A stretch of DNA of 32,000 nt, taken from positions 120,001 through 152,000 of the forward strand of contig NJBF01000001.1 in the NCBI GenBank assembly GCA_003144275.1, written 5' to 3'. This DNA is from Candidatus Heimdallarchaeota archaeon B3_Heim. GTDB taxonomy: Archaea; Asgardarchaeota; Heimdallarchaeia; Hodarchaeales; Hodarchaeaceae. Position numbers and translations under genes: made by a program. Below, piece by piece: positions 1,232 to 25,043 of this stretch (positions are counted from its first letter, which is position 1; the number at the start of each line of letters is the position of its first letter). Under the pieces are notes generated by a model, which was not told where the DNA came from, searched no databases, and worked only from the letters and a program-made list of their open reading frames with translations.

Positions 1232-3865
1232 TTGGTTGATTTACCAATGAAGATTTTAAAAACCACTACTTCACAAATCACTTTTATTTCAGATGTTACC
1301 AAGAATAAAATTCATGAGCAAGATTATATCATCCTTTTTGATAAAAATAAATCAACTAATAAACATTTATTAGCACAAGTTAGTAGATTATCTCAAGAAA
1401 AAGCGAATGAGATGAAAGGGATTGCATATATTCTTGGAGAGTTTGAAATGGATGAATTTCGCTTATCTACATGTCGAATTCCTGTTTCAATGTATGCTGA
1501 GATATCTATTCCTCCTAAAGGATTGGTTTCAAGGATTATTTCCTATGATGGAGAAGATGGCATATATTTAGGCGATATTATTACTTCTCCCTCTACAACT
1601 GATCCATTCTTAATATCACCCCAATTTTTAGAACGACATGTTCTCTGTGTAGCCAGTACTGGAGCTGGTAAGTCATACAGCATTGGGGTGTTATTAGAAG
1701 AAATTCTTCTGAAATTCAATAACGCCTCAGTCCTACTGTTTGATGTTCATAATGAGTATTGGGGGTTAGGATTAGAAAATACAGGAAAAGAAATAAAAAA
1801 CCTTGATCGAGCAGGATATACCCCACAAGGTTTCACTGAAAAATTAATGGTCTTTGATGAAGATTCGATTGGATTAGGTACTCATTTTGATCTACCAAAG
1901 ATAAGAAGACTATTGGAAATATCAGCAGCTCAAGAAAATGTTCTCACAAATCTGATACAAGAACCTGAGAAACTCGAGGACATTTTAAGAAAAGTTAAAG
2001 ATGCAGATATCCATACAGGAACTCGTGAGAATTTAATTTCGAAAATTAACATTCTTCAAAAACAATCTGTGTATACGAAGGATTTAGGTGTATCCTCTCT
2101 CGTACAGTCAAATCAAGTGTCAATCATTCGATTAGATCAATATACTGATGAAAAAAAGCGTAATATGCTGGTAAATGAGCTGCTTACGCAAATTTTTATG
2201 ATGAAGGTTCATGGAAAGATACCAAAAGAACAAGAGATTCTTATTATTATAGAAGAAGCACATAGATTTGCCCAAAAAAGTGACATACTTGCTAGAATAG
2301 CACGTGAAGGTAGGAAATTTGGAATATACGAAATATTAATTTCTCAAAGACCAGGAGATTTGCCAGATAATATAATTGCGAATATGAATACCTTAGTGGC
2401 TCTTCGGATTAAATCTGAGAAGGATATTACAAAAATACGTTTAATGGAAGGTATAAATACAGATACTGTCTCAGTTCTCCCTCATCTCACAAAGGGAGAA
2501 GCTCTTATAGTGGGCCTTCAAGATGGCATCTCAAGTCCTATTAAAATTCAAATTCGGGCACGGTTAACCAAACATGTTGATCCTCAAGAGGATTCCATGC
2601 CTGATTCGATACCCCGATTCGATTCTTCTCATCCTATCAGGGAGAGGCAATTATCAAAACAGGATCCCCCAAAAGATGAGAATAGCTTTGAATTAGATTT
2701 AGCTCCATCACAGATCACCATGAAACCAATAGATTACAAGGATTTAGTAAATCTTCTTTATTGTGAGCATATAATGATTACACACAAGCTCACAGGTATT
2801 TGTTTGTATAAATTTGGTACTTCAATGCTGAAAGTTGATCCACAATTAGTTTCTGGATTTTTAACCGCAATTTCAAGTCTCTTTACAGAATTGAAGGACG
2901 AAGAAATCAAAGATCGCACTATAATTAGGGATTTTTCAGAGGAAATCGGTGATCGGACTTTTAAAATAATAACTATTGAAGGAAACTACTCTGTAACCTC
3001 TTTAATATTAGAACGTCCTCCAAAATTCGGTAAACGTTTGAGAAAACGAGGACGAGAATTTGTATATGCATTTGAAAAAAAATTTCATAAGCTCCTCACC
3101 AACTTTTTTGGAGAACTAGATCCATTTGAAGCAGTCATTGATGATTTAGATCAATTTCTAGGTTTATCATTATTAGGCCCACTCAAACTTAAGACAGATA
3201 GAGAAAATGGAATGAATGACAACCAGCTTGTCCAAATTATTCAGGAACAGAGCAATAAATTAGCAAATTCAGAAGGATTATTCATAAAAGAAATTGTCAA
3301 TCACGGCCTTATTAGTTCCAAATTCAAGTACATAGAAATTTTTAAAAATCTTCTAAACCTATTCAGAGAGGATTTATTAGTTCCACTAGATCCAAACCGA
3401 AGATTACCTAATTTTGATCGTAACGATGTATCTGATGAAAGTGATATTGTTACTGAATACAAAAAATCGATCTTACAATCCCTCCAGGAAGATGAACTCC
3501 CCACTGAATCTCTTTCTAACCAAGCGGACGATACAAATCCTGAATGGGTAACACAAATAGTAGCAGAAATCCTTGAGAACAGTTTACCAGATCAGCTCAA
3601 AGAGGATATATTAATCCGAGATATCATCTTTGAGTCAAATATTAAACTAAAGGACAATACACCTAATACAAGTGTTTATTCTAAACCAGAACTAGTTAAA
3701 AGCTTAAATTTATTGTCCAAGGCTGGTTTCAAAACAATTACAAAAACTACTAATCCTTTGAAAGGACCTAAATTTATTATTTCATCAGGAAGTGCTGAAT
3801 TGGTCGTATCGATATCATTGTATAATTCAAATAAATATCTCTGCGTCATTGCACAGCTAGATTGA
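1232..3865 (+). CDS. HerA/FtsK-superfamily (DUF87-type) ATPase with C-terminal Asgard longin-like and winged-helix-like extension
   Basis: N-terminal HAS-barrel-like region, Walker A ASTGAGKS, LFDVHNEY, Walker B IIIEEAHRF, REGRKFG (Arg finger) and ISQRP. After the ATPase end (RLTKH) comes a linker, then HIMITHKLTGICLY..VDPQLVSGFLTAISSL..FEKKF..NFFGELDPF (longin-like). TTG start; true start uncertain. Confidence 0.85.
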   Translation: MVDLPMKILKTTTSQITFISDVTKNKIHEQDYIILFDKNKSTNKHLLAQVSRLSQEKANEMKGIAYILGEFEMDEFRLSTCRIPVSMYAEISIPPKGLVSRIISYDGEDGIYLGDIITSPSTTDPFLISPQFLERHVLCVASTGAGKSYSIGVLLEEILLKFNNASVLLFDVHNEYWGLGLENTGKEIKNLDRAGYTPQGFTEKLMVFDEDSIGLGTHFDLPKIRRLLEISAAQENVLTNLIQEPEKLEDILRKVKDADIHTGTRENLISKINILQKQSVYTKDLGVSSLVQSNQVSIIRLDQYTDEKKRNMLVNELLTQIFMMKVHGKIPKEQEILIIIEEAHRFAQKSDILARIAREGRKFGIYEILISQRPGDLPDNIIANMNTLVALRIKSEKDITKIRLMEGINTDTVSVLPHLTKGEALIVGLQDGISSPIKIQIRARLTKHVDPQEDSMPDSIPRFDSSHPIRERQLSKQDPPKDENSFELDLAPSQITMKPIDYKDLVNLLYCEHIMITHKLTGICLYKFGTSMLKVDPQLVSGFLTAISSLFTELKDEEIKDRTIIRDFSEEIGDRTFKIITIEGNYSVTSLILERPPKFGKRLRKRGREFVYAFEKKFHKLLTNFFGELDPFEAVIDDLDQFLGLSLLGPLKLKTDRENGMNDNQLVQIIQEQSNKLANSEGLFIKEIVNHGLISSKFKYIEIFKNLLNLFREDLLVPLDPNRRLPNFDRNDVSDESDIVTEYKKSILQSLQEDELPTESLSNQADDTNPEWVTQIVAEILENSLPDQLKEDILIRDIIFESNIKLKDNTPNTSVYSKPELVKSLNLLSKAGFKTITKTTNPLKGPKFIISSGSAELVVSISLYNSNKYLCVIAQLD

Positions 3866-3953: not shown

Positions 3954-6524
3954 TCATGCTCCTGGGAAAAGATCTTTTATAGTATTTGTTTCTCCTGCAA
4001 ACGCATCTAAGTCTCCTAACCACTTAGGAAGCGTCTTCTTATGCCTCGTTTCAAAGTCGTTCAAAAATTCACCTAATTTTTTACGTAATTCGGTTGAGGT
4101 ACTGTCTGCAAATATTGCGGCAAATACCCAATTCGCATATTCGATTGTTAGAACAACATCACCGTGATCAATAGTCTTGAGGAGTTGTTCGCTCCGAACA
4201 GCTTCTTTTGCGAATGAAGTAATAGCAGAGAACAACCCAGCCACCAGTGCTGGTTCTACTTGCGATTCTTCTGCAAAAGTATGCGAAAGAACAGCACGTC
4301 CATCCAACATCATTACGTGAAGTGAATCGATGGTTGCTTCTTCGAAAGAATAAGAGAATTCACGGTGCCAGAGGGTTATGATTTGACTAAAGGATACTTC
4401 AGCATCATAGGTAACCTCATCGAGAATCGAATGGACCTCACTGATAGAGATCCCGATATTCTCTGTTAACTGAGAAATAGTTAGCATATGACCTGTAATT
4501 GCATTTCGGATCACTTCACCTTTCTCTGAATTCATCCATGCTTTTGAAACTAATTTCTCAGTATCTTCATCTTTAGAGGGAGTAGCGGCAATCAATAATA
4601 TGTCAGCTTTCTTTTCTAGCTCACCCACACTCGGTAATCGTGTAACATCGGAAAAAATTGATTTATACTGAGTTTTTTCCTCACCTTTCTGTGTTCGTAC
4701 GTGGAATTGTTTTCCTGCAAGGAATAAAATTCCCCCGTAGACGAGGATGACAGCCAACGGATGAAAGAGATTAAAGGGGATAGAGAGAATTTGGAGAAAC
4801 TGACCTCCCGATCCTTGCCAAATCACAGGTATTTGTCGAAGTTCAGGTAGAATGAATTGATACCCCCCGAATGTCCCACCTTTCCAGACTGCGGTTAACC
4901 AATTCAAATCAATGTACCCCAAAACGGATGTTGCCTGTAGAAAAGGATACACCAGTATTTCATTCTGATAATTAGGATATACATCGCCAACAGAGAAACC
5001 TAGTATAGTATACCAACCCTCATTGTACCAACCAAACAAAAAAAGGCTCACAGATAAGATTGAAAGGTAGGTGACGATGCTTGTTCCAATGACGCTCCAA
5101 TTCCATCTACGAATGACTAAGACTAATGTAGCACTCAACAGAAAACTTGCATAATTTTGAGTTAACCAAAAGAAGGTCGCGTACTGAACGGTATCAAAAT
5201 TCGTGAAAATATTCTTAACAATAACTAAATATGTTAAAAAACCAACAGAGAGGAGAAAACCAACCAAAATACCAGAAACCGTTCCTTTAGCTATATTTAT
5301 CCTGTTGAAACGAGCTGTTGTAATTTTAATAGTTTTAAAGCTTTCTATAAGTTTAAGCAATAGATAAATTGAAAATGGTTCGAATATATCTAAAAAGAGA
5401 ACGAAAAACAATGATACCATAATGAAATAGACAATAAAGTACGACACCACAAATATCTGATCGAAATATTGTACGAGGAACAAAATGACAGCCAAACCTG
5501 ACATAAAAGCTCCAACAGTAGATAAACTTTGAACCATTGTTACATATAATTGGTTACCTAAAAATTTACCCTTCCTTGACAAATGACTGGCCTTTATTAG
5601 ATATATACTGAATACTAAAGTTGCTATATAGGCAAAATATATTTCTAAAAACCACCCCATCGATGTTCCTTGGAGTAAGCTTGGATTTTCAGTCTCCCCG
5701 AGGAGTTGTAAAATTGTCATCAGAAGAAACAGAGTTATGGGTAATATCGCAATTAGTACCTTCAATAATTCTCTTTCATTTTCCCAATTCTTTGCTTTTA
5801 CTCGTTTCATTACCTCATGAAAGGGAGAAGTCTCGAGCTCAAATTGTATCTCCTGAAATCTCCGAGAAATAGATCTTACTTCCGAGAGTTGGTTTTCTAA
5901 ATCTTTATTTTCAGCTTCAAATTCCGTAAGAGCAACGTTCTTTTCATATGCCTCTGATTCGCCAGCTTTCTTCAATTGCTTTCGAAGTTGTGAAATCTCA
6001 TTTTTATTGCGTTTTATCAGTTTCTTTATAGGAGATATCTCATTCCGCTTCTCAGTCCAAGTTTGATAGAAAAGAATTGTCATGGATAATATGGGTGAGA
6101 TCCCAAAGACAAAAGCAAGAATTACTATAGGATAACTAAGGTAGATAACTATTGAATTGGCAATATGTCCAAATAAATACTTGATAAGAAGTGGTATAGG
6201 CGCAGATATTGCTCCTTGAGTAATTACCGATTCTGAATCCCATAAAGTGGTCCAGCCTGATGTTCCAGCTATGGGATAGTATTCTTGATCAATGAATTGA
6301 TTCGGATCTGGTACAAACGAATTCAAGATACTTGGAAATATGAAATAAGCGATATAGAAGACAACAAAGCCGATATAAGCACGATTATAAATTATTGCTA
6401 AGAAATTTTCTGATTTTCGCCTTGTATATAAGTACGGAATAAATAGAACTATTAGTGGGGTTAAAGTTAATACGATAGAGACAAGAAGGTTCATCGGATT
6501 TGTTAGGGGATCAATACTCGTCAT
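3954..6524 (-). CDS. Polytopic membrane protein (about 12 TM) with a coiled-coil loop and a C-terminal Asgard longin-like domain
   Basis: About 12 hydrophobic segments by eye and a charged heptad-like loop (KKLIKRNKNEISQLRKQL..ENKDLENQLSEV). C-terminus SLHVMMLDGRAVL..VEPALVAGLFSAITSFAKE..LKTIDHGDVVLTIE..FLNDFETRH..WLGDLDAF fits the Asgard longin-like pattern. Confidence 0.75.
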   Translation of the reverse strand: MTSIDPLTNPMNLLVSIVLTLTPLIVLFIPYLYTRRKSENFLAIIYNRAYIGFVVFYIAYFIFPSILNSFVPDPNQFIDQEYYPIAGTSGWTTLWDSESVITQGAISAPIPLLIKYLFGHIANSIVIYLSYPIVILAFVFGISPILSMTILFYQTWTEKRNEISPIKKLIKRNKNEISQLRKQLKKAGESEAYEKNVALTEFEAENKDLENQLSEVRSISRRFQEIQFELETSPFHEVMKRVKAKNWENERELLKVLIAILPITLFLLMTILQLLGETENPSLLQGTSMGWFLEIYFAYIATLVFSIYLIKASHLSRKGKFLGNQLYVTMVQSLSTVGAFMSGLAVILFLVQYFDQIFVVSYFIVYFIMVSLFFVLFLDIFEPFSIYLLLKLIESFKTIKITTARFNRINIAKGTVSGILVGFLLSVGFLTYLVIVKNIFTNFDTVQYATFFWLTQNYASFLLSATLVLVIRRWNWSVIGTSIVTYLSILSVSLFLFGWYNEGWYTILGFSVGDVYPNYQNEILVYPFLQATSVLGYIDLNWLTAVWKGGTFGGYQFILPELRQIPVIWQGSGGQFLQILSIPFNLFHPLAVILVYGGILFLAGKQFHVRTQKGEEKTQYKSIFSDVTRLPSVGELEKKADILLIAATPSKDEDTEKLVSKAWMNSEKGEVIRNAITGHMLTISQLTENIGISISEVHSILDEVTYDAEVSFSQIITLWHREFSYSFEEATIDSLHVMMLDGRAVLSHTFAEESQVEPALVAGLFSAITSFAKEAVRSEQLLKTIDHGDVVLTIEYANWVFAAIFADSTSTELRKKLGEFLNDFETRHKKTLPKWLGDLDAFAGETNTIKDLFPGA

Positions 6525-6853: not shown

Positions 6854-8257
6854 TTATTCATGGAGTTCCTCTGGCACTATCTCATATGTATGTTGACCCC
6901 AGACATCCTTGATGATTAGAGGTAATCGTAAAATATTCTGTCCTATCAGTGACCAATTCTTCTGTTTAACCAATTTACGAATTAATCTAACATAACGTGA
7001 TGGATTTATTAGGGGGGAATTTGTGATAAATTCAGCTTTTAAGACAAGATCGAAAATTTCCTCTGTAGTAAGCTCAGACGTGCCAAAACTTCTATCATTA
7101 TAGGAATAATACTGATCGGGTTTTATATTTCCATTCGATACGGCCTGCTGCCAAAAATCAGACCCTATTAAATACAAAAAAGGAAACGGTTGAGAAATAT
7201 CAATTTTTGCGGTACGGCAGAAGTCAATTGTTTTTTGTATTTCCTCAACTGATTCGTATGGCCCACCAACAATAAATGTAGCAATAATAATCAACTGATA
7301 TTCATCAGCCAAGTCGAACGCCCTAGAAAGTGTATGTGACCAATTACGAGGATTTCCACTAATCTTTTTGTACATATCAATCATACGTGGAACAACTGAT
7401 TCTAATCCAACTAGGAGCCCTGTAGCTCCTGCTTGTCTCATCAAACGGGCTCCCTCTTCGTCAATATGATCTGCACGGGCCAATGACCAGAACGGTATAT
7501 CAAGTCCTTCTTTAATTTTTAATCTCAGGACTTCTTTGGTGTGCTTAGAATTCACCTGGAGGCTGTCATCGATTACGACGATATTTTTGTACTTCAATTC
7601 GTTTTGAATTATCGCAATTTCTTCAACAATTTTTTCTGGAGATCTTTGGCGATGAGCCATTGTCAAGACGGATCTACTACAAAAACGACATTTCCGCCAT
7701 GAACAGCCCCGTACCCACTTCATACTTGCTGAATCGCCTATCCAAATATTTGTCATTCTGTTGTATTCAATATGCCTGACAAAACTACGATCAGGAAAAG
7801 GTAAAGCATCAATATCTTTTATGTAACCTAAATCATAAAACTTTTTTTCAGGATTGCGGATAATATCCACTATCCTTTGTTCTGCTTCTCCTGCTACCGC
7901 AATATCAATATGTGAACATTCTAGAAGGACTTTTTCTTTAATGTAGGTGACATGAGGCCCTCCTGCTAAGGTTGTGATATTGGAGTTTACTCTTTTAGCA
8001 ATTTGTAAAATAGAATAGGCGACTCTACGGAATGGTGTCATAACTGTGACACCTATATGAGTAAAATCCCCGTTAGCAATGAGTTTCATCATTCTTAGAG
8101 GTGAAAAGCCCTCTGCAGAAAGATCAATGACAGTTACTTTAATACCTTCTCTTTTTAGAATAGTTGCTAATGTTAGAATACCTAGAGGTTGACAAAATCG
8201 CTCCACGTTTCCCCATTTGTCAGGAGGAAAGACAAGTAAAACTGATTCTACGGACAT
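6854..8257 (-). CDS. B12-binding-domain radical SAM protein (class B-like); substrate unknown
   Basis: N-terminal PLGILTLA..GGPHVT..GEAE cobalamin-binding segment, RGCSWRKCRFC cluster motif, IDDS, GLES, FIVGGPYES. Confidence 0.85.
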   Translation of the reverse strand: MSVESVLLVFPPDKWGNVERFCQPLGILTLATILKREGIKVTVIDLSAEGFSPLRMMKLIANGDFTHIGVTVMTPFRRVAYSILQIAKRVNSNITTLAGGPHVTYIKEKVLLECSHIDIAVAGEAEQRIVDIIRNPEKKFYDLGYIKDIDALPFPDRSFVRHIEYNRMTNIWIGDSASMKWVRGCSWRKCRFCSRSVLTMAHRQRSPEKIVEEIAIIQNELKYKNIVVIDDSLQVNSKHTKEVLRLKIKEGLDIPFWSLARADHIDEEGARLMRQAGATGLLVGLESVVPRMIDMYKKISGNPRNWSHTLSRAFDLADEYQLIIIATFIVGGPYESVEEIQKTIDFCRTAKIDISQPFPFLYLIGSDFWQQAVSNGNIKPDQYYSYNDRSFGTSELTTEEIFDLVLKAEFITNSPLINPSRYVRLIRKLVKQKNWSLIGQNILRLPLIIKDVWGQHTYEIVPEELHE

Positions 8258-8477: not shown

Positions 8478-10166
8478 CTATCGTCTCTTGCGATAAGATG
8501 CGTAAAATAGTGGAATTGCAATTAATGCCGAAAGTAATCCGAATCCTGGAATATTTGTTCCCGTAGTACTAGTATCTGATGGACCATCGGTTGTTGTCTC
8601 TTGAGTCGCTGCTACAGCAGCTACTGCTGAATAAGAAGGATCATGAACGATTTGTCCACCAACCCAGTCTCCAAACTCAGTAACTGTCAGATAATTGGAA
8701 GCATCAATTGCATAGCTGGGGGGACTTTGAAAACCAAGTCCATTGATAAGAACATGTTCTGTAAAGTCTTCATAAAGTCCGTGAGTCAAGTCGAAATATT
8801 TTCTTGCGAGGGAGGTCGTTATGTGAGCGAGCCCACTATGAGGTTTTGCTACAATGACTACATCACGATCTACATCTGCATTAAAACCCAGTTCTTCAAC
8901 ACCTTTTAATTTATACGTATCCTTATTTTCAAAATCAGTTTTAAAATCATCTTCGGCGGAAATAGAGTTACTTGTTGAGTCCCAAGTCCCAAAGTTTAGT
9001 CCATGAGAATTTGTTTGTGTAACTACAGCAAATCCAAATCCATTGGCGTCATTGATTCTTTTCTGAGCGTCATCCGACGGATAAACTTCTACGTTAAAGG
9101 TTGGTGAGAGCTTATCTGGTAATGTACCAAGCAGCGGCAATGAAAGGTCGATACCAGGAAGTTCTATGTCATATGTGAGAGATTCTTCAAAAGAGTTAGG
9201 ATATTCAGTCGTGTTAATTCCTTCACCAGAATTAGTAATAAGCCAACTTACCTCACCAATATTGTAAAGAGTATTGATATCTGTAGAAACTTTAGTAATT
9301 GTTTCAGTTTCAATTGTTTCAGTGTATTGATTCCAGTTTACTTGATAATCAAATGATAGATAATCAAAGACGGTAACTGCATCAAATCCAGAGGCCATCG
9401 CTAATAATTTTGATATATCAGTTTGAAGAAGGGCAGCAGGAATAGCTGACAAAGGATTGTATGCGTCCCTCTCAACTCGTTGCCAAAAAGTCATCACATT
9501 TGTATAATTAATTCCAAAGTGGATTTCTGTGTTACTTACCACGTCGAATTTTGTATGTACATCATATTTAGGTATCGGATCGCCTCCACGACTTTGCACA
9601 AGGGTATTCAATGCATCTGTTAATTGTCCGAAAGCTAATGTATAACCAATATAAATCTCGTCACCTGAATTAATGACTTTATCTTCAGGAGTAGTTGAGT
9701 AAGCAATTAATCCCATGAAGTTATTTGAAACATATTTTTCTGCATGCTGATATGTTCCAGAGTTATCTTTTTCAAGATTGGTCCAATGTTCTAGTAGTTG
9801 TTGAAAAGGAGTGGTGCCATTAACAGTTACAATTGACTGATCACTATATCCTAATGTATCAAGAGCGGCCATTGTTTGCGAATTTAAAATATCACTAAGA
9901 TAGAAGTTCATTTCAACTTTTTCCAATCCTGTAAATACTACTTCAACCCCTGAAGTATTAATATAAGACATAAACACAGACGCGTTATCTTCAGGAAAGA
10001 ATGGTTTTAAAGGAACGTCAATGGTTTCATAAAAATAATCTTCATCAAAAGAATGAGTCAAGTTGAATTCCTGACTGGTTGCTGTTGCTGATTGAACCAA
10101 AGAAAAACCAAGGACAAATATTAAGGCTAAAGATAATTGGACTGGTATAATTTTTGGATTTTTCAT
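8478..10166 (-). CDS. Cell-surface (S-layer-like) glycoprotein with PGF-CTERM sorting signal
   Basis: N-terminal signal peptide, several N-x-S/T sequons (NLT, NAS, NTS, NGT, NYT, NTT), Thr-rich linker, then IPGFGLLSALIAIPLFYASYRKRR (PGF + TM + basic tail). Confidence 0.8.
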   Translation of the reverse strand: MKNPKIIPVQLSLALIFVLGFSLVQSATATSQEFNLTHSFDEDYFYETIDVPLKPFFPEDNASVFMSYINTSGVEVVFTGLEKVEMNFYLSDILNSQTMAALDTLGYSDQSIVTVNGTTPFQQLLEHWTNLEKDNSGTYQHAEKYVSNNFMGLIAYSTTPEDKVINSGDEIYIGYTLAFGQLTDALNTLVQSRGGDPIPKYDVHTKFDVVSNTEIHFGINYTNVMTFWQRVERDAYNPLSAIPAALLQTDISKLLAMASGFDAVTVFDYLSFDYQVNWNQYTETIETETITKVSTDINTLYNIGEVSWLITNSGEGINTTEYPNSFEESLTYDIELPGIDLSLPLLGTLPDKLSPTFNVEVYPSDDAQKRINDANGFGFAVVTQTNSHGLNFGTWDSTSNSISAEDDFKTDFENKDTYKLKGVEELGFNADVDRDVVIVAKPHSGLAHITTSLARKYFDLTHGLYEDFTEHVLINGLGFQSPPSYAIDASNYLTVTEFGDWVGGQIVHDPSYSAVAAVAATQETTTDGPSDTSTTGTNIPGFGLLSALIAIPLFYASYRKRR

Positions 10167-10349: not shown

Positions 10350-12026
10350 TTAAGTTCGAGAACTTCTCATTCTTACCCGAAATACTACAAGTATTGCGAG
10401 AGAAAATACACCTGGAAAGAGTGAAAAATATGAGATTTTAGATAAACCAAGATCTAAGTTATTAGATTTTAGTATCGCTTTTGAAAGTGATTTTATTTTA
10501 GTTGGATAACCCATCCACGATTCTATTTGAAAATCTTGTACATATTCTGCTGATGTGAGATACAGATTAGCTGTTTTAAGTAGTTGTTCCGTACTAAGAG
10601 ATGTTGTGGACATATTTGCAACGAAACGTCTAACGCTTTCAGCCACAAATGGGTTCAAAAGAGAAGATTCCTCTAAGAACAGGATATTACCACTTAAACT
10701 AGGATGTTGAGTTAATGCAACTAGTTTGATATTTATAGAAGTCAATGACCATTTCTGAGTTTGAAGATCTCGCTGGAGTGCATAATCATGTCCTTTTATA
10801 TGATTTATGAATAAGAGATCTTCATTTTGTGTAATTGTAATATTATCTTTAGCTGTGATATCAGATTGTATTAGCTCCTCTCTTGATGTGTTACATCCAT
10901 CAATTTTGATCGAGGAACTCTTCTTTGATTCGAAACCTTCCAATACACCAAGATTGTGGGATACAAGAAGTGAAAGAGAGGCATGGTTAAATAAAGTCAT
11001 TCTACTGTAAATATCATTTCCTTTATACCATGAAATCGTATCATTAACACGAATTAACCCAGGATATTCTTTTTCGATGTGTTTTTCAGTAGTTTCATTC
11101 CAAGTCAATCCTGAAGGCAATTCTTCATTTATAATCAAGTTTTGGATAGCTCCAACATTCATTTCTACTTGTGTTTCCACTCCTGAATTAGTAGATGTCG
11201 AATATTTCATTATTCTCGTAGTAAAGCTTATTGATTCAAATTCTATTAAAACAAATTTATCTGATATACTAAAACTACTTATCTGTTCGATATTAACCCC
11301 ATTTGTTTGAAAGAGATATGTTATATTCGAATATGTTGTAGTAATTGTCAATTCATTGTTGTTTTCTTGTATCTCAACCTCCATTGGAATAATACTAGAA
11401 AATGTAGGGATGTCAATAGTCGTTGTATGACCATCTATTGAATTTTGAACCATTTGACTAGAGTTCAATGAATCTAACAAAAATTCTAGGATTTTTAGAG
11501 GTATATTCGCATATCCTACTAAATACTGGTCATAAATAAAGTTCTGTCCATCTAACTTTAGAGCTAGTCCCAATAAGTCTTGAGTGAGAATCACACTCTC
11601 GCCTGAAGGTAAACTAAACACTGACAAATATTTGAAATATGGAAGGGATGCTTGCCATTCTACCTCAAAGGGGGTAATAGATTCAGTTCTCTTGATACTT
11701 TCCACAGCTATGAAAGCAGATTTTATTTCGTGAGAATCATGGCCGATCATTGTAATATTATTGTCTATTTCAGGATCGAGATCATTCTGAATTGGAAATT
11801 CTTCTCCTGTAATTAAATCACTTAGCAATTGTAAAGATTCAGCAGATGGAGTATTACTGTTATAATCGAATTTAATTCCGAATAACGAATTTTGATAGAA
11901 GGGATCTAGTTGCTCAAATTGAAAGTCAAGACTTTTACCAATAACTCCCACATTGAAAGATGAGATGATTATGAACAAAAAAATAGTAGGAATGCAGAAT
12001 CGAATGATAGAGCTTCTGTAACCCAT
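10350..12026 (-). CDS. Second secreted, C-terminally anchored surface glycoprotein; probable divergent paralog of 8478..10166
   Basis: Signal peptide, many sequons, C-terminal FPGVFSLAILVVF + RVRMRSSR. Collinear blocks of similarity to the neighbouring gene (see findings). Its ATG abuts the stop of the upstream gene (TAAATG). Confidence 0.65.
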   Translation of the reverse strand: MGYRSSIIRFCIPTIFLFIIISSFNVGVIGKSLDFQFEQLDPFYQNSLFGIKFDYNSNTPSAESLQLLSDLITGEEFPIQNDLDPEIDNNITMIGHDSHEIKSAFIAVESIKRTESITPFEVEWQASLPYFKYLSVFSLPSGESVILTQDLLGLALKLDGQNFIYDQYLVGYANIPLKILEFLLDSLNSSQMVQNSIDGHTTTIDIPTFSSIIPMEVEIQENNNELTITTTYSNITYLFQTNGVNIEQISSFSISDKFVLIEFESISFTTRIMKYSTSTNSGVETQVEMNVGAIQNLIINEELPSGLTWNETTEKHIEKEYPGLIRVNDTISWYKGNDIYSRMTLFNHASLSLLVSHNLGVLEGFESKKSSSIKIDGCNTSREELIQSDITAKDNITITQNEDLLFINHIKGHDYALQRDLQTQKWSLTSINIKLVALTQHPSLSGNILFLEESSLLNPFVAESVRRFVANMSTTSLSTEQLLKTANLYLTSAEYVQDFQIESWMGYPTKIKSLSKAILKSNNLDLGLSKISYFSLFPGVFSLAILVVFRVRMRSSRT

Positions 12027-13523
12027 TTAGTTCGCCTCCAGTACCTTATCCAAAGATTCTACTCGATTCGGATTTATAATGTAAGAAGAACGTTTCTTTT
12101 CTTTAATTATCATAATTATTCCTAAATCAGAAAGCCTTTTGATATGATGTTGAACACTCGAATGATGCACATTTATTTTAGAGGATATTTTTGACAAAGA
12201 AAGTGGCTTACTGTTTCGTAATAATACTTTACAAAGCTCTTTAGCCACTTCACTTTTTAAAGCTAAGGCTATTTCTGATATTTGCACCGACTCTTCCCCT
12301 GTTAAATAGAAAATATGATATTTTCCAATTTTATGATGTGTTACTAGATTAAAGTCATCTAACGCTTGTAAATGCCATAAGAGAGATGAAATTCCACATC
12401 CAAGAGTACGCTGTATTTCTCTTAAATGGGCTCCTTGTTCTCCCTTCTCTTCTAAATATCCAACTATTTGCATCCGCATTTCATTATCCAATAAATCATC
12501 TTCATTTAATCTTCTTTTCTGAGGAGAATAGGCGATATGTGCAATAAAGAAGAAAATTCCTATTGTTGCTCCTGTGATCAACTCACGAATTCTTGAAAGG
12601 ATACCAAATTTTATCAACCCAATGAACGAGAGAACGAGTCCAATAGAGATAATCCCAACTGTAGCTAACTGCTCAAATCCTGTAAACTGAAACATTCCTG
12701 GGGGATTTGACAATGTTTCTGTGGTTAAGAGAGCAATATCTCCTAAGACATCTATTAAATCATCAGCAACAGGATAATTTATTCCCATTAATCTAAAATC
12801 ATTTGTATCTTGAGAAAGTGCGACACTAGGACAAAAACTACCTACAATCACTTTGTTTCGAACTAACCATAGACCCGATTTAAATTTTGAAAGATAAGAC
12901 TCATTTTCAGGATGGTCTATTTCAGCTAGTAATACTGTTTTTTCGTGTAAACCAACCCAAGAAGAAGTCCCAGTGAAATTATATGCTAATTGATCGAGTC
13001 CTAGGGAAGGAAGCGTTTCATTAATAATATGAATATTGTGAACTTGAGAGTTTTGATTTATCGGATAGACTTCAGGCCAATAGCTTGTTATACCCAAATT
13101 CTGTAATTCGGTGCTAGGCGTTCTGTCAAAGAACTTGTTTAAGACGAATAATCCCTTTCCACTTTGAATCCAAGTAACTAAGTCACCTAAAAAACCGAAA
13201 TCAATAGGTAATTGTAGTTCATTGATCCACCAAATAGCCCTTACACTTTGATTGTCAAAATTAAATGAGGAATTTGACAACACAGCAGTTATGTTATAGA
13301 AATCCACATTGATCTCTGCATTCAAGACTAGTTCATTGCTAAGTCGTTTATCGTTATCTGAGCCATAAAAGATTGTAATTTTAGGGAGTTCTGCATCGGT
13401 TGTCATAGAAATATGAGCTAAGGATGCTTGAAATGTCAAGGGGGAAACCACTACAAAGAATAAGAAGGTAAGCATTAGAAATTGAACTTTGCTAGAAAAT
13501 CGTCTCACCATTCTTGAAAGCAC
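12027..13523 (-). CDS. Membrane-spanning transcriptional regulator: extracellular domain, TM helices and two cytoplasmic winged-HTH domains (COG3398-like)
   Basis: Signal peptide, sequon-rich middle (NIT, NSS, NQS, NET, NFT, NES), two hydrophobic helices, then LLDNEMRMQIVGYL..GAHLREIQRTLGCGISSLLWHLQAL and LSLSKISSKINVHHSSVQHHIKRLSDLGII. Start may be the ATG at 13511. Confidence 0.75.
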   Translation of the reverse strand: MLSRMVRRFSSKVQFLMLTFLFFVVVSPLTFQASLAHISMTTDAELPKITIFYGSDNDKRLSNELVLNAEINVDFYNITAVLSNSSFNFDNQSVRAIWWINELQLPIDFGFLGDLVTWIQSGKGLFVLNKFFDRTPSTELQNLGITSYWPEVYPINQNSQVHNIHIINETLPSLGLDQLAYNFTGTSSWVGLHEKTVLLAEIDHPENESYLSKFKSGLWLVRNKVIVGSFCPSVALSQDTNDFRLMGINYPVADDLIDVLGDIALLTTETLSNPPGMFQFTGFEQLATVGIISIGLVLSFIGLIKFGILSRIRELITGATIGIFFFIAHIAYSPQKRRLNEDDLLDNEMRMQIVGYLEEKGEQGAHLREIQRTLGCGISSLLWHLQALDDFNLVTHHKIGKYHIFYLTGEESVQISEIALALKSEVAKELCKVLLRNSKPLSLSKISSKINVHHSSVQHHIKRLSDLGIIMIIKEKKRSSYIINPNRVESLDKVLEAN

Positions 13524-13751: not shown

Positions 13752-14225
13752 ATGAAATTAATAAAATTATATCGAAGACGAAGAGCTGTAAGCCCAATTT
13801 TAGCAGCTATTCTTTTAATCGGACTCGCTGTCGCTGCAGGTGCTGTATTGTTCGTAGTCGTATTACCTATGATAACATCATCTGGAGAACTGAATTTTGG
13901 AGAAACAACTTTATCAGATATCGACGCTGATGGTTTCAATGATAAGCTAGTGTTTACTTTAACGAATAAACTATCAGATACAGTAGCTATATCTAACGTT
14001 GTTCTACAAGGTAGAACTGGAGCAGGAACATGGACTACTTTTACAACTGAAGATAATACAACAACTAATTTTCCGTTTAATATAGCTACAAGCCAATCAA
14101 AAATTGGGATAATATTTACTTTTGATCCAGGAACCTATGATGAAATACGAATTAAAGTTGATTATTCAATTGATGGTGTAGCCGAAGATCCCCTATATAG
14201 TGCTGCGTATGATGTGGCAGTTTAA
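13752..14225 (+). CDS. Archaeal type IV pilin-like protein (class III signal peptide)
   Basis: RRRRA|VSPILAAILLIGLAVAAGAVLFVVV is a prepilin peptidase (PibD/FlaK) cleavage motif followed by the hydrophobic helix, then a beta-rich globular domain. Confidence 0.9.
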   Translation: MKLIKLYRRRRAVSPILAAILLIGLAVAAGAVLFVVVLPMITSSGELNFGETTLSDIDADGFNDKLVFTLTNKLSDTVAISNVVLQGRTGAGTWTTFTTEDNTTTNFPFNIATSQSKIGIIFTFDPGTYDEIRIKVDYSIDGVAEDPLYSAAYDVAV

Positions 14226-14324: not shown

Positions 14325-14816
14325 TCAACCCAGTCTTAATGTCTCAGATCTGCTTCTTACGAATTTATTAACAGCCATTTTCCCATCAGTCAAGACTTGA
14401 CGTATATTAATTGCAAAATCATCCCAATAAGCAATTAATCTCTCTCTTTGATCCTTAGTTTTTACCATTTCTGTTATAAGAAAAAAGGATATTTGATAAC
14501 CTTCTTCTGGACTTCTAATTACTTTAACATGAGGACCAGGATTTCGCCATAATTCATTCCGGATACGGTCAAAAATGAACTCTTCTACAGGATCATTAAA
14601 TGTTAATTTAAGTGATATAATTGCAGAATTCCCTTGTTTTATCATTATCCCATTCTTAAACTCAACGGTCTCTCGTTTTACGTTCTCACAGCATGGGTGA
14701 TCTGGATCAAGAATGCAGTTCGGTTCCATACCCGACGTACAAGGGACTGGATATAGTTGTATTTGTGATTCGTCTAATGTCAATGTAAACTCACCAAATA
14801 TGACAAATTTCATCAT
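14325..14816 (-). CDS. arpC4: Arp2/3 complex subunit 4 (ARPC4/p20-Arc)-like protein
   Basis: Alignment from memory to human ARPC4: NSAIISL~NSVRVSI, NDPVEEFI~ADEIEKIL, RSPEEGYQISFFL~RKPVEGYDISFLI, RLIAY~KLVDF, LTDGKMAVNKFVR~ISEMKLSVNARAR. Length (163 aa) is similar and the blocks are collinear. Confidence 0.75.
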   Translation of the reverse strand: MMKFVIFGEFTLTLDESQIQLYPVPCTSGMEPNCILDPDHPCCENVKRETVEFKNGIMIKQGNSAIISLKLTFNDPVEEFIFDRIRNELWRNPGPHVKVIRSPEEGYQISFFLITEMVKTKDQRERLIAYWDDFAINIRQVLTDGKMAVNKFVRSRSETLRLG

Positions 14817-14930: not shown

Positions 14931-15350
14931 TTAAAAGTCTCGAGTTTTCAAGAGCTTCATTTTAGTGGAGCTAACCAAATAATGCATTAAACCTAACTTT
15001 ACATTTGAATCTGTAATTAACACTAGAATCGTACTTTGTACTTTTGAAATTATTCCTAAACCAATGGGAGTTTGGACATGAACAAAATCAATCTGATCCC
15101 CCAAATTTAATTGAATACACGCACTTGAGAATGTACTAACAATTCCTGCTACCATTGCTGATACAACTGTCTCTACTTCATCTGATATAGGCAGTGTTCT
15201 CGCAGATAATATGGGAAACCCTTCCTCACTTACTAACAGAACTTTTTTTACACCTTTTACCGTTCCAAGACCATCAATGATTTTTTGAACTTTGTCCATT
15301 GAATTATATCCGTTATTATCTCCTAATGTCATATTTTCAAAAGTGGCCAT
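14931..15350 (-). CDS. Roadblock/LC7 (MglB/LAMTOR-like) domain protein
   Basis: VKGVKKVLLVSEEGFPI..VSAMVAGIV..LVLITDSNVKLGLM is a typical Roadblock pattern; AGGTGA SD lies upstream of the ATG. Confidence 0.85.
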   Translation of the reverse strand: MATFENMTLGDNNGYNSMDKVQKIIDGLGTVKGVKKVLLVSEEGFPILSARTLPISDEVETVVSAMVAGIVSTFSSACIQLNLGDQIDFVHVQTPIGLGIISKVQSTILVLITDSNVKLGLMHYLVSSTKMKLLKTRDF

Positions 15351-16255: not shown

Positions 16256-16434
16256 ATAGGCATTTTCTTTTTCATCTCCGTCTTGGAGGATTGATTGGGG
16301 GAAGATTTCGTTGAAAAAAATTATTCTACTCGTTGTATTTTTGAATCTTCAAAAGAAAACTAATATTAAATATAACAATTTTGAATAAGATTAGCATAAG
16401 AATTCACAAGAAATCTGTGAGTTGGCGGATTAAC

Positions 16435-18621
16435 TTGGCAAACGAAGTAGTACTGAAAGTAGCTGAAGCCAGACAAAGGGACGTAGGCCGTGGAAAGATT
16501 CGAATGGATGATATCAACATGAGAGAGATTGGAATAACTACTGGCGATGTTGTTGAAATCCGAGGCCGCCAAAAAACAGGTGCTATAGCTTGGCCTGCTT
16601 ACATTGAAGATCAAGGAGCTGGTATTGTACGCATGGACGGGATCATTCGAAGAAACGCCAAAGTATCTCTAGAAGAAAACGTCCGTATACGTAAAGCCCA
16701 AATCAAAGTTGCTAAAACAGTCAATATTGCACCAACTCGTCAAATATCTTTAGATTATGGATTTGAAGCCTTTGTAAAAAGAAAACTACTAGGCTATCCT
16801 GTTTCTAAAAATGACACAGTACTTATTCCAATATTAGGTCGATCTATTCCATTCGTCGTTAATTCTACGACTCCTGCAGAGATTGTACTTATTACTGATA
16901 CAACCAAGCTCAATGTTTCAGAAAAACCGATTTCTGAAACAGAAACCAGTATGCCAGGAGTAAGCTATGAGGATATCGGAGGATTATCTGATGCAATTCA
17001 AAAAATTCGAGAAATGGTGGAGCTTCCTCTAAACCACCCAGAACTCTTCAAGAAATTAGGAATTGATCCTCCCAAAGGAGTATTACTACATGGTCCTCCT
17101 GGAACAGGAAAAACCCTTATTGCAAAGGCAGTTGCTAATGAATCTGAAGCGCATTTTATTCCCATACAAGGCCCAGAAATTATGTCCAAATTTTATGGGG
17201 AAAGTGAAGCCCGCTTACGAGATATCTTCAAAGAGGCGGAAGACAATGCACCCAGCATCATTTTTATTGATGAAATTGATGCTATCGCTCCCAAAAGAGA
17301 AGATGTGACGGGAGAAGTTGAAAGAAGGGTTGTTGCCCAGATTCTTGCATTAATGGATGGCCTAGAAAGTCGAGGAGAGACCATTGTGATTGGAGCCACA
17401 AACCGCCCTAATGCTGTTGATCCTGCATTACGAAGACCAGGGAGATTTGATAGAGAAATTGAAATTGGTGTACCTGATCAAAATGAAAGACTGGAGATAC
17501 TTCAAATTCATACAAGACGAATGCCAGGTATTGAAAAAGTTGACATCAAGAAGTTAGCCGTTATTACACACGGATTTGTAGGCGCAGATCTCGCAGCCCT
17601 AGGCAGAGAAGCTGCAATGAGGAAATTACGCGAAATTCTTCCTGATATAAATTTAAGCGATGATACAATCCCACCAGCAGTACTTGACAACTTGGAAGTT
17701 GAAGACCGTCATTTTGGAGATGCTTTAAAAGAAATTCATCCCTCTGCTATACGTGAAGTATTCATAGAAGTTCCCAATGTACGATGGACGAACATTGGAG
17801 GTATGGACCAAGTAAAACAGGAACTTATCGAAATCGTAGAATGGCCATTCAAACAGAAAAAGAATTTTGAACGAATTGGCATCCATCCACCTCGAGCGGT
17901 CTTGTTATTCGGTGCTCCTGGCACAGGTAAAACTCTGTTGGCCAAAGCAATTGCCACGGAAAGTCAGGTAAATTTTATTAGTGTTAAAGGTCCCGAATTG
18001 ATTTCTAAATGGGTAGGGGAAAGTGAAAAGGCAATCAGAGAAATATTTAGAAAAGCTCGCACTGCAGCTCCAGCTCTGATATTTTTTGATGAAATTGATG
18101 CAGTAGCGGCAAAACGTGGATCATCTGGCTCCTCTGGCGCCAATGAACGCGTAATAAGTCAACTCTTGACAGAACTTGCTGGTATTGAACCTTTGCGTGA
18201 TGTCTCTGTTTTAGCTGCAACAAACCGTCCTGATATGATTGATCCCGCTCTTCTCAGACCAGGACGCTTTGATAGGGTCGTATATATACCACCTCCCGAA
18301 GAAGATAGCCGGAAAAAGATCTTAGAAATACATACCCGAGATATGCCATTAGGAAAAGATGTGAATTTAGATCGATTAGCTAAAGAAACGGAATTTTATG
18401 TAGGAGCAGATCTCGAAGCCATTTGTAGAGAAGCGGGAATGCTCGCATTACGAGAGAACTTAATGGCTGAAATAGTGTTATGGCGGCATTTTGAACAGGC
18501 GTTATCGAGTGTCCACTCCTCTTGTACACCAGACATGATGAAATGGTATAAAGATCAAGAATCGCAATTCAGACGACGAGTAGGAATGGATGCACCTCAA
18601 ACGATTCCACTCTTCGGATAA
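16435..18621 (+). CDS. cdc48: CDC48/VCP/p97-family AAA+ ATPase
   Basis: N-domain [15 protein letters not shown]1 Walker [10 protein letters not shown]2 [40 protein letters not shown]. Start placed at TTG 16435 (MANEVVLKV) rather than the track's 16381. Confidence 0.97.
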
Positions 18622-21946: not shown

Positions 21947-22810
21947 TTAGAAATCAAAATGATACATCTCATTCATTTCAGGGAATTGAGAACATTCTTC
22001 AATCTTTTCAAGTAGAGGTGCCACCAAAGAAGAGCCTTTATCCAAAAGTGTAACAAATTCTTCCTCGGTAAAGACTCCTGATTCTCCTTTCTGCATTGAA
22101 CAAATAATTCCTTTATCGGTAATAGCTAGAGAGAAACGTGCATCTTTTCCCCTATCTTCGAGTAAATTAGGATCATAGACAATTGTATTATTGACTTTAG
22201 CGAATGTAAGGCAAGCAACAGATCCTTTTCTGGGAAGAGGTTCCTTTTCATCCAACAGAGTGACTTCTTCGAGATCTTCGTCAATTACAACCTTTTTCAG
22301 TCGAGTATTTGCTAGTGCAGCCATAGCACCAAGAGCGGCAGCATCGAACAAATTCCCACCATCATCAAGGATATACACATCAATAAAAAGGATCCAAACC
22401 TTCTTTCCAGGAATTACACATAATTTAGGATCCTTCATGGGTATAATTTTGCTTTCTCGTATACCACGATCGACAACACGAGCCAACTCAACTGCTCGGG
22501 GGCCGGGTGGACCACTTTCATTGGTTGGTGATGAGATAGGAGAAATTTCTGCATTTACAGTGATTACACCGTCATTTGGTGTGTCAGGAAAGGGAGTACC
22601 AAGTTGTGCTTTCACACCAGCAAGGATTACAGTATCTCCCCATTTTACCATTGCTGATCCTTCAGCCTTTTTAATAACATTTGGGATTATTTGTATTGGT
22701 CTACAATCCAATAAATTTCTTCCATCAGATCTTTTCCCTTTTTCAAGTAATTTAGTAACATATTGTTTTTCTAAAACTCCAACGATTGCTTCTGAACGCA
22801 TGATATTCAC
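21947..22810 (-). CDS. rrp42: Exosome complex component Rrp42
   Basis: RSDGRNLLDCRPI, AEGSAMVKWGDT, ELARVVDRGIRES, DDGGNLFDA. Confidence 0.95.
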   Translation of the reverse strand: MNIMRSEAIVGVLEKQYVTKLLEKGKRSDGRNLLDCRPIQIIPNVIKKAEGSAMVKWGDTVILAGVKAQLGTPFPDTPNDGVITVNAEISPISSPTNESGPPGPRAVELARVVDRGIRESKIIPMKDPKLCVIPGKKVWILFIDVYILDDGGNLFDAAALGAMAALANTRLKKVVIDEDLEEVTLLDEKEPLPRKGSVACLTFAKVNNTIVYDPNLLEDRGKDARFSLAITDKGIICSMQKGESGVFTEEEFVTLLDKGSSLVAPLLEKIEECSQFPEMNEMYHFDF

Positions 22811-23566
22811 CTATTCCTCTTCTTCTCCCAAATCATCTATAGATTCCTCAATTTGGGTATATTTGGCCAGAACGGCATCTTTTTGCATTTTGTATACTTC
22901 ACCAATTGCACGAATTGCTAGCGATAATCCTTCTTTTACTTCATCAGTCGTGAATTCACCATCACATTGGAACAAAGTGATTTCCCCAGTATTATAATTC
23001 ATCGCAACAGGCATATCACCTTGTCCATCCTTATCTTCGACATCAGATAAGTCAACAACCATTTTATCCGCAACTTTGCCCACTGCACAGCCTGTTACAA
23101 ACCCCTTCATCGGAATACCTGCATCAGCTAGAGCTATTGACGCTGCAGTCAACGCAGCGCATCGGGTGCCTCCATCAGCGTCCAATACAGTAATATATAC
23201 ATCAATCGTGCCGTTTGGAAATTTTTCTAAAAATAGTACAGAATCTAAAGATTCCTTAATCAATTTACTTAATTCATACTCTCTACGTCTTGGTGCAGGG
23301 CTCTTTCGCTCGTTCACAGAAAACGTAGCTAGACGATATTCTACTCGAACTATCGCCCGATCAGGTTTTGCTAAGTGTTTTGGGTGCAATTCTCTCGGAC
23401 CATATACTGCACATATTATTTTGTTATTACCCCAAGTAAGATAACAACTCCCATCTGCTCTGTCCAAAACACTACTTTTCATTGTGATTGGACGTATTTC
23501 ATGAAGTTCTCTACCGTCTAAACGTCGTCCATCATCTAAAAGTAGAGATGTTTTATCTTGTGTCAT
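22811..23566 (-). CDS. rrp41: Exosome complex exonuclease Rrp41
   Basis: RLDGRELHEIRP, VYGPRE, FSVNERK, ADGGTRCAAL, EDKDGQGDMP. Confidence 0.96.
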   Translation of the reverse strand: MTQDKTSLLLDDGRRLDGRELHEIRPITMKSSVLDRADGSCYLTWGNNKIICAVYGPRELHPKHLAKPDRAIVRVEYRLATFSVNERKSPAPRRREYELSKLIKESLDSVLFLEKFPNGTIDVYITVLDADGGTRCAALTAASIALADAGIPMKGFVTGCAVGKVADKMVVDLSDVEDKDGQGDMPVAMNYNTGEITLFQCDGEFTTDEVKEGLSLAIRAIGEVYKMQKDAVLAKYTQIEESIDDLGEEEE

Positions 23567-23582
23567 TCATTTCACACCATTA

Positions 23583-24290
23583 TCATAATTTTTTATTTTC
23601 TTCTTCTAAATATTCACGAATTCTATCCGTAAGCCCACTGGTATGAGCTTCTGCTTCAATTTTCCGAATTGCGCTAATTACTAGATTTTCCTTTTCAACC
23701 GAATTTGCAGAAACTACAATACGTCCATTTTGACCTACAATAATTTGAGCATTTGTCATATTTTTTAATAATTGAATCATACTACCCTTCTTACCAATTA
23801 TCCGTGGTATTTTCACTGGATCAACATCAATTAATCTGCCGTGAGTTAATTTTCGAAGCCCTCTTCCTAGCATAGTAAGGACTGGATCTCTAGTTCTATC
23901 AAAATATGTGATTTGTGCCTTGATAATGTCTCCATAATCCAAAACCTGTTCTAAGCTCTCTCTGAGAGAATCAAAGTCGCGATCTAATACACTATTAACT
24001 CTAAGAGCACCAACGTAAGGGCCTCGTATATCGACGTTCCATGAGGTAAGCCCTACTCTAACAATTTTCCCAATAATGATATCTCCTTCTAACGGGATAT
24101 AACAACCTTCTAAAGGGACAACACCAACACTATCTTTCCGAATTTTTACTAATCCAATCATGGAGGCTATAATTTCAGTTTCTCCGTTGATTTTTTTCCG
24201 ATATACTCCACCCGCAACATCGACTCCAGATCCACGTGCGAGGACTTCACCTGGTACGACCAGCTGATTTTTATTTACTAAAATTGTCAT
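23583..24290 (-). CDS. rrp4: Exosome RNA-binding protein Rrp4
   Basis: LVVPGE, YIPLEGDIIIG (S1), KIPRIIGKKGSMI (KH), IVGQNGRI, EAHTSGLTDRI. ATG at 24290 preferred over 24299. Confidence 0.95.
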   Translation of the reverse strand: MTILVNKNQLVVPGEVLARGSGVDVAGGVYRKKINGETEIIASMIGLVKIRKDSVGVVPLEGCYIPLEGDIIIGKIVRVGLTSWNVDIRGPYVGALRVNSVLDRDFDSLRESLEQVLDYGDIIKAQITYFDRTRDPVLTMLGRGLRKLTHGRLIDVDPVKIPRIIGKKGSMIQLLKNMTNAQIIVGQNGRIVVSANSVEKENLVISAIRKIEAEAHTSGLTDRIREYLEEENKKL

Positions 24291-24306
24291 TTTAATCACT
24301 TTATTA

Positions 24307-25041: not shown

Positions 25042-25043
25042 GA

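Follow-up and report, generated by a model that had tools for sequence, protein, structure and literature searches.

The 32,000-nucleotide stretch of Candidatus Heimdallarchaeota archaeon B3_Heim analysed here (contig NJBF01000001.1, positions 120,001 to 152,000 of the forward strand; hereafter the window) encodes, at positions 1232 to 3865, a HerA-type ATPase to whose motor core a long C-terminal extension of a longin domain, a predicted winged helix and a terminal alpha/beta domain is fused. The protein is a paralogue of the NurA-linked repair helicase HerA, the fusion is conserved, and the adjacent gene, whose position beside the ATPase gene is also conserved, encodes a membrane protein ending in a longin homologous to that of the ATPase. 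We tentatively propose that the protein is a neofunctionalised HerA motor which docks to longin-tailed membrane proteins, and we put this reading at somewhat short of an even chance.

A HerA-type ATPase with a complete set of catalytic motifs

The gene is a single open frame (1232..3865, forward strand) of 877 aa when read from TTG 1232, and all residues are numbered from that codon (protein P0001). The methionine matching ATG 1247 is the start in 22 of the 29 full-length orthologues aligned, and because of this agreement the product is probably 872 aa long. About 30 nt before ATG 1247 there is an AT-rich, TATA-like sequence; the transcript is possibly leaderless. The parts of the gene are as follows.

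1232..3865, forward strand: whole gene, HerA ATPase with longin, winged helix and C-terminal domain; TTG 1232, probable true start ATG 1247
1247..1561, forward strand: N-terminal region, residues 6-110, at the position of the HAS barrel (alignment with HerA paralogues)
1562..2581, forward strand: HerA/FtsK-type P-loop ATPase core, residues 111-450 (Pfam, NCBIfam, PADLOC, alignments, PDB matches)
1652-1675, forward strand: Walker A ASTGAGKS, residues 141-148 (orthologue alignment)
2252-2263, forward strand: Walker B EEAH, residues 341-344 (orthologue alignment)
2342-2353, forward strand: SQRP, residues 371-374 (orthologue alignment)
2582..2731, forward strand: Pro/acidic linker, residues 451-500, weakly conserved (orthologue alignment)
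2732..3175, forward strand: longin domain, residues 501-648 (AlphaFold2 model; matches to solved longins)
3176..3436, forward strand: predicted winged helix, residues 649-735, net acidic (H-S-H-H-S-S topology, Atlas TM, charge)
3437..3541, forward strand: acidic disordered linker, residues 736-770 (predicted local distance difference test, pLDDT, <50; net charge -7)
3542..3862, forward strand: terminal alpha/beta domain, residues 771-877 (model, motifs, profile search)

Homology to HerA was found to span about residues 111-448, which bears out a reading made earlier from the sequence only, in which an intact ATPase motif set was seen to end near residue 445. The Pfam family DUF87 (HerA central domain) matched residues 113-275 with an E value of 2e-16 (61 bits against a cut-off of 23.2), and HerA_C matched residues 362-438 weakly. 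Among the NCBIfam and PADLOC models only those of the HerA type gave matches, all of them far under the equivalog cut-offs. HerA entries of the PDB were matched with E values of 1e-22 to 1e-34, the best solved relatives being 9x1l and 4d2i, the latter over residues 125-435. Walker A, the Walker B EEAH, REGRKFG and SQRP showed no variation across the 29 orthologues and are common to NurA-linked HerA paralogues. EEAH was considered as a peculiarity of this protein and dropped, since it is present in all HerA paralogues compared, the NurA-linked ones included, and is normal for the HerA branch. With its catalytic motifs kept, the motor is apparently active. In the sequence alignment, residues 6-110 correspond to the N-terminal region of HerA paralogues and are about 30 aa shorter. 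No transmembrane (TM) segment was predicted in the polypeptide.

Conservation of the fused gene

A search of 5.8 billion proteins returned about 60 full-length orthologues (45-96% identity, 839-894 aa) on independent contigs from NCBI, JGI, ENA and Logan. Among those with a source name, one bears the label Thorarchaeota and the others Hodarchaeales, Hodarchaeota, Heimdallarchaeota or Promethearchaeota. Beyond the orthologues the score drops from 703 to 134 bits, and the next proteins are 520-aa DUF87 proteins of Archaeoglobi. Within the GTDB genus of the window, the complete C-terminal module was present in 21/21 genomes, in open reading frames (ORFs) that measure 810-936 aa unless the contig is too short; one ORF, of 647 aa, is cut by the contig end. 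More divergent members with the full architecture were also observed, namely P0138 (913 aa, 33% identity end to end), P0132, P0141 and P0140.

These observations refute the notion that faulty assembly or gene calling has joined two genes into one long ORF, a possibility whose likelihood we consider negligible. The sequence-only reading had named relatives with two separate genes as the mark of such an artefact, and stand-alone proteins equal to the C-terminal half do occur, as described below; mis-assembly, however, is not indicated, as the fused form stands on some 60 independent contigs from several sources, all 21 matches in the genus lie in open frames without internal stops, the linker can be aligned, and the shorter database matches are contig-end fragments only.

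Structure of the C-terminal extension

No Pfam or NCBIfam model matched residues 450-877. An AlphaFold2 model was built of residues 490-877, for which 44 orthologues served as input (mean pLDDT 79). Together with the alignment, it recovered every element that had been read from the sequence: a linker, a longin, a winged helix, an acidic linker and a terminal alpha/beta domain, the last being 107 aa long.

The longin fold occupies about residues 502-648 (model residues 13-159), with a five-stranded sheet and flanking helices, and solved longins were matched over most of the domain. Compared with TRAPPC4/synbindin, Sec22, VAMP7, sigma-adaptins, Fuzzy, Mon1/Ccz1 and the Lokiarchaeal protein 8yqg, the domain is predicted to be a structural member of the longin fold; it differs from known longins in having no Pfam sequence-family match and in being fused to a ring ATPase. 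Structural matches of the extension were MglB, Mon1/Ccz1 and Fuzzy/Inturned (Foldseek), and also GATOR1 and Rag C-terminal domains. The majority fraction was 0.75 in the longin and 0.77 in the ATPase core; the two are equally conserved, and the extension is therefore under selection and no chance ORF sequence.

The 85 or so residues after the longin adopt an H-S-H-H-S-S (H1-S1-H2-H3-S2-S3) topology in the model. Similarity to PadR, WHD (WHD_PKMT) and RRE-type winged helices, measured between models that are predicted on both sides, gave Atlas TM values of 0.55-0.65, and we assign residues 649-735 to a winged helix with moderate confidence. An Atlas query by features returned nothing for this domain. 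Its net charge averages -5 across orthologues and its third helix is neutral, which argues against canonical DNA binding. The acidic linker that follows is disordered in the model, at about residues 733-768 of the protein.

The terminal domain, when its 107 residues were modelled alone, was compact (pLDDT 87.5; predicted TM score 0.79) and carries the invariant motifs DIL.R...FES and NPL.G. A profile of this domain retrieved just 17 proteins among 1.84 billion representatives, all of them proteins of the same type or fragments; six were looked up, and the three that were named are from Hodarchaeota, Hodarchaeales and Promethearchaeota. By this profile search, the domain appears to be confined to this protein family.

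The sequence-only reading did not recognise the architecture as one already described, and the literature is in line with this. A full-text search, with subscription journals outside its scope, found no paper combining Asgard, HerA or FtsK, and longin, and in the principal structural survey of the longin and roadblock proteins of Asgard archaea the fusions are with GTPases, Roadblock and TRAPPC3 only (PMC10933270).

Relation to NurA-linked HerA and other motors

A maximum-likelihood tree of 43 rows was computed under LG+C20, with support from the Shimodaira-Hasegawa-like approximate likelihood ratio test (SH-aLRT). The focal clade (SH-aLRT 100) has a stem of 2.64 changes per site, and its sister (SH-aLRT 95) is the NurA-adjacent 'type A' HerA of four Heimdallarchaeial families, its own among them. 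It stands beside canonical NurA-linked HerA and not inside that group. The protein is best read as a paralogue of NurA-linked HerA whose exact node is uncertain owing to the long branch; the simplest history would be the duplication of a NurA-adjacent HerA, followed by fast divergence.

Bona fide NurA-HerA pairs coexist with the focal gene. The complete sister genome G066 has two such pairs (G066:C1, 2810952-2812921 and 921352-923383) plus the focal gene, and in the genome of the window (G000) a NurA gene adjoins another DUF87 gene on contig C97. The C97 pair is of a very divergent type, with a stem of 5.84 in the tree. A second Heimdallarchaeial genome with two distinct NurA-HerA pairs was also noted (G015:C1, 2512360-2514882 and 2874928-2877313).

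At the focal locus itself, the absence of nurA, mre11 and rad50 neighbours, first remarked from the sequence, was confirmed: no member of the NurA, Mre11 or Rad50 families was found in the 21 window ORFs scanned with Pfam (almost every ORF of 140 aa or more), and such neighbours are absent from 16 syntenic loci as well. A search of the genome for the Rad50 zinc-hook family gave no match, with a model that a control showed to be insensitive.

Repair HerA contacts NurA through its N-terminal region. NurA-linked archaeal HerA, which belongs with Mre11-Rad50 to the end-resection machinery (4d2i, 9x1l; NF040819/NF040937; DUF87), has the same core, Walker A, EEAH, REGRKFG and SQRP as the focal protein, which differs from it in some 430 extra C-terminal residues (longin, winged helix and terminal domain), a shorter N-terminal region, a long stem and the lack of a NurA, Mre11 or Rad50 neighbour. 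Its scores are about 10% of the equivalog cut-offs of NF040819 and NF040937 (99.8 bits against 970 for helicase_HerA, and 80.5 against 800 for the other model). In score, neighbourhood, clade and architecture alike, it falls outside repair HerA. The earlier suggestion that this paralogue has been repurposed thereby gains support, since the branch is long, the link to NurA is lost and domains have been added.

FtsK/SpoIIIE, CedB and EccC-type motors belong to the same superfamily, and the placing of a winged helix after the motor is reminiscent of the FtsK gamma domain; in contrast to FtsK, the focal ATPase has no TM segments and its winged helix is acidic. The match to Pfam FtsK_SpoIIIE was below threshold (17.6 bits against 24), as was that to NCBIfam CedD (61.5 against 600); the VirB4/CedD-like paralogues of the genome are two other proteins (C50 and C54). 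The anti-phage HerA models NF042943/4 gave 79 and 66 bits against 850 and 800, and there is no adjacent effector. The protein is not a member of the FtsK, Ced/VirB4 or anti-phage HerA groups, and its ATPase core is that of the HerA clade.

Origin and spread of the tail

Parts of the extension also occur without this motor. In a genome of the sister family (G078), a 501-aa protein lacking an ATPase (L074:1342-2847, contig C406) is 31% identical to the focal longin and winged helix (E 5e-24) and is collinear with the start of the terminal domain (hhalign 88%, E 3e-6). Like the focal gene, its gene lies near one for an MptE-like kinase. A second protein of this stand-alone kind is P0139 (482 aa), and both (482-501 aa) consist of a longin, a winged helix, a long linker and the terminal domain. 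A third arrangement was seen in P0140 (964 aa, from a Hodarchaeales metagenome-assembled genome), where the same longin and terminal domain follow an ATPase of a different DUF87 clade, which has no N-terminal barrel and is closest (37%) to other DUF87 paralogues of these genomes; the sister-family contigs with an ATPase of this type are short and end before its tail and neighbours. Taken together, the stand-alone forms and P0140 indicate that the tail is a pre-existing portable adaptor attached to HerA/FtsK-type motors more than once. The stand-alone relatives look like the evolutionary source of the fusion.

The longin and winged helix (longin-wH) had matches in 343/400 Asgard genomes, with 28-36% identity and E values down to 1e-29 in other Asgard proteins. 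Five of these were inspected. Three begin with a signal peptide, continue with an ectodomain of about 850 aa that contains Ig-like Big_1 domains and, after a single TM helix, end in the tail; the fourth has a shorter ectodomain, and the fifth has FG-GAP repeats and no predicted TM helix. Type-I surface proteins of about 1100 aa with this tail sometimes occur as tandem paralogues (L039 = G168:C28, L040, L041). These Asgard surface and membrane proteins share a homologous longin-wH part with the focal protein, placed after the TM helix behind the large Big_1 ectodomains, and differ from it in having neither the ATPase nor the terminal domain. The longin-wH unit looks like an unnamed receptor-tail module across Asgard archaea.

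The convergent membrane-protein neighbour

The gene next to the ATPase is encoded on the opposite strand, tail-to-tail with it.

3954..6524, reverse strand: neighbour P0122, 856 aa, about 12 TM segments, cytoplasmic winged-helix-like segment and C-terminal longin; candidate docking partner (TM prediction, longin homology)
3963..4367, reverse strand: longin of the neighbour, residues ~720-854 (profile comparison, orthologue alignment)

P0122, with its predicted TM segments as against none in the ATPase, also has a charged, coiled-coil-like loop at about residues 155-250, and no Pfam, NCBIfam or PADLOC family matched it. Its C-terminus aligned to the focal longin by BLASTP (E 6e-6 over 102 residues), and comparison of profile with profile gave a probability of 94% (E 1e-7). 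When a hidden Markov model (HMM) of the focal longin was run against the genome, the best non-self match was this neighbour. Its longin is almost invariant in orthologues that are otherwise 60-84% identical (aligned C-terminal 250 residues). Longer homologues of 1041 and 1137 aa were observed in the sister family, and other membrane proteins of the same genome carry the same kind of longin tail (C4, C31, C101, C48 and C86).

The neighbour adjoins the focal gene in 21/21 genomes of the genus, in one of them (G064) as a remnant only. This remnant (L048, G064:C1 ~2130361-2130690) is the last 110 aa of the membrane protein, after which come unrelated genes; either the locus was rearranged or this single-contig assembly was joined wrongly there.

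A proposed membrane-docked motor and its alternatives

We infer from these data a motor that would form a ring, pair with other proteins through its longins, dock at the membrane and there act on a substrate. A duplicate of NurA-linked HerA would have lost its NurA linkage and evolved fast, and its C-terminus would have been joined to the pre-existing adaptor of longin, acidic winged helix and lineage-specific alpha/beta domain. Given its intact ATPase motifs, the protein would most likely still form an ATP-driven hexameric ring, whose six longin tails would pair with longins on the cytoplasmic tails of membrane proteins, the first partner being the ~12-TM protein encoded tail-to-tail. Pairing of this kind is suggested by the fact that longins act as dimers (PMC10933270), by the paralogous longin on the neighbour and by the frequency of the module on Asgard envelope tails. 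The result would be a membrane-docked motor functionally like FtsK or CedB, built from two polypeptides; its membrane coupling, as we propose it, would be analogous to that of FtsK, CedB and EccC, but in trans via longins. Its substrate would most likely be DNA, given the HerA ancestry, and might also be protein. A bolder version, in which longin heterodimers couple a hexameric motor to the ~12-TM protein (other envelope proteins with longin tails may be partners too) as an undescribed two-part machine of Hodarchaeales, we regard as possible but doubtful.

Several observations weigh against docking. The contact between the two longins is itself hypothetical. The longin family is very large in Asgard archaea, as the 343/400 genomes attest, and the shared domains may be coincidental; moreover, the HMM of the neighbour's longin scores two other membrane proteins above the ATPase. 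The two genes are convergent and not co-transcribed, and as synteny is collinear over at least 20 kb, their adjacency alone is weak evidence. In genome G064 (70% complete), all that is left of the membrane protein beside the intact ATPase is 110 aa. In the sister family, on short contigs, the gene for the membrane protein has no neighbour of the focal type.

It is also conceivable, though somewhat unlikely, that the protein is a soluble helicase of DNA repair or recombination whose longin-wH and terminal-domain tail serves for regulation or oligomerisation, with longin homodimers, for example, joining two hexamers. Here other nucleases would replace NurA, such as the SNM1/DRMBL-type nuclease encoded upstream with a MutS-like ATPase. 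The nearest relatives of the ATPase are indeed NurA-adjacent HerAs, every catalytic motif is kept, and the conserved gene order 3-6 kb upstream includes the DRMBL-type nuclease and a MutS domain V protein. The Lokiarchaeal Roadblock-Longin protein 8yqg, according to its entry title, was solved as a homodimer. However, there is no operon link to any nuclease, as pterin-synthesis and TrxR-like genes lie between, and the N-terminal region that would contact NurA is shortened and diverged. The acidic winged helix does not fit this role well, the very long stem suggests a changed function, and the same tail sits on membrane proteins elsewhere. The conserved upstream block (L079, G000:C57:107000-121300) comprises genes for PTPS, the MptE-like kinase, the DRMBL/SNM1-type nuclease (303 aa), the MutS domain V protein (731 aa) and a beta-CASP RNase.

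A third possibility, which we think unlikely, is that the longin serves as a platform for an Asgard small GTPase, as in MglB, Mon1-Ccz1, TRAPP and Ragulator. The ATPase would then be switched or localised by the GTPase, or be a scaffold of a guanine nucleotide exchange factor or GTPase-activating protein, independently of the neighbour; such a role is compatible with membrane docking. The structural matches to MglB, Mon1/Ccz1, Fuzzy/Inturned, GATOR1 and Rag C-terminal domains are in its favour, as are a Roadblock/LC7 gene at 14931-15350 and the fact that Roadblock and longin dimers are conserved platforms for GTPases, of which Asgard genomes have many (PMC10933270). Yet there is no GTPase gene in the window or in the conserved block, and longins without a GTPase role, such as SNAREs and adaptins, are common too.

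A role in defence as in Sir2-HerA or DUF4297-HerA, in which the tail would be sensor or effector, is very improbable for this HerA: its best PADLOC matches are HerA models of defence systems (120.9 bits), but these scores reflect the shared ATPase core and are far under the NCBIfam equivalog cut-offs, the neighbours are TrxR-like, membrane or surface proteins and no effector, the region is a collinear housekeeping one, the gene occurs in 21/21 genomes unlike patchy defence islands, and the tree places the ATPase with NurA-linked HerA.

Genomic surroundings

The DNA of the window is low in GC (about 35%). Gene order is shared by the 16 syntenic loci: a TrxR-like gene (reverse strand), the focal gene (forward), the 856-aa membrane protein (reverse), two surface proteins of about 560 aa (reverse) and a 498-aa protein with a double helix-turn-helix (HTH; reverse). 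The tandem surface proteins (8478-10166 and 10350-12026, both reverse) each have a signal peptide and a C-terminal anchor; no Pfam family matched either, and one carries a Heimdall-CTERM/PGF-like sorting signal. The 498-aa protein (12027-13523, reverse) combines a signal peptide and an ectodomain of about 260 aa with two TM helices and, on the cytoplasmic side, two HTH domains of the ArsR/TrmB type. It looks like a membrane-anchored one-component transcription regulator. A B12-binding radical SAM gene (6854-8257, reverse) is present in 3/16 syntenic loci at varying insertion points: here it lies between the membrane protein and the surface proteins, and in L056 between the ATPase and the membrane protein.

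Further along, genes for an archaellin/type IV pilin-like protein (13752-14225, forward), an ARPC4-like subunit of Arp2/3 (14325-14816, reverse) and the Roadblock/LC7 protein (14931-15350, reverse) stand side by side. The ARPC4-like and Roadblock/LC7 genes encode eukaryotic signature proteins. They are followed by CDC48 (16381-18621) and by a typical archaeal cluster of exosome (Rrp41, Rrp42, Rrp4), SBDS and proteasome-alpha genes (21947-25781, reverse). The remainder of the window is housekeeping, with no mobile or defence island.

Implications

Hodarchaeales are the archaea closest to eukaryotes, and longins are eukaryotic signature modules by which trafficking machinery is docked on membranes. 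In the protein described here, a ring motor of a well-understood class carries a longin as a fixed part, and paralogous longins occur on the neighbour and on many envelope proteins. The protein presents a probable case of a repair helicase that gained a new role through fusion with a portable adaptor, and even if the longins do not pair, it would be a clean example of lineage-specific neofunctionalisation of HerA. Should the two-part machine prove true, it would represent a case, in the lineage nearest to eukaryotes, of a prokaryote using longins as adaptors that dock an ATP-driven motor at the membrane, and the longins of the ATPase and its neighbour would offer a testable pair for longin docking adaptors before eukaryogenesis.

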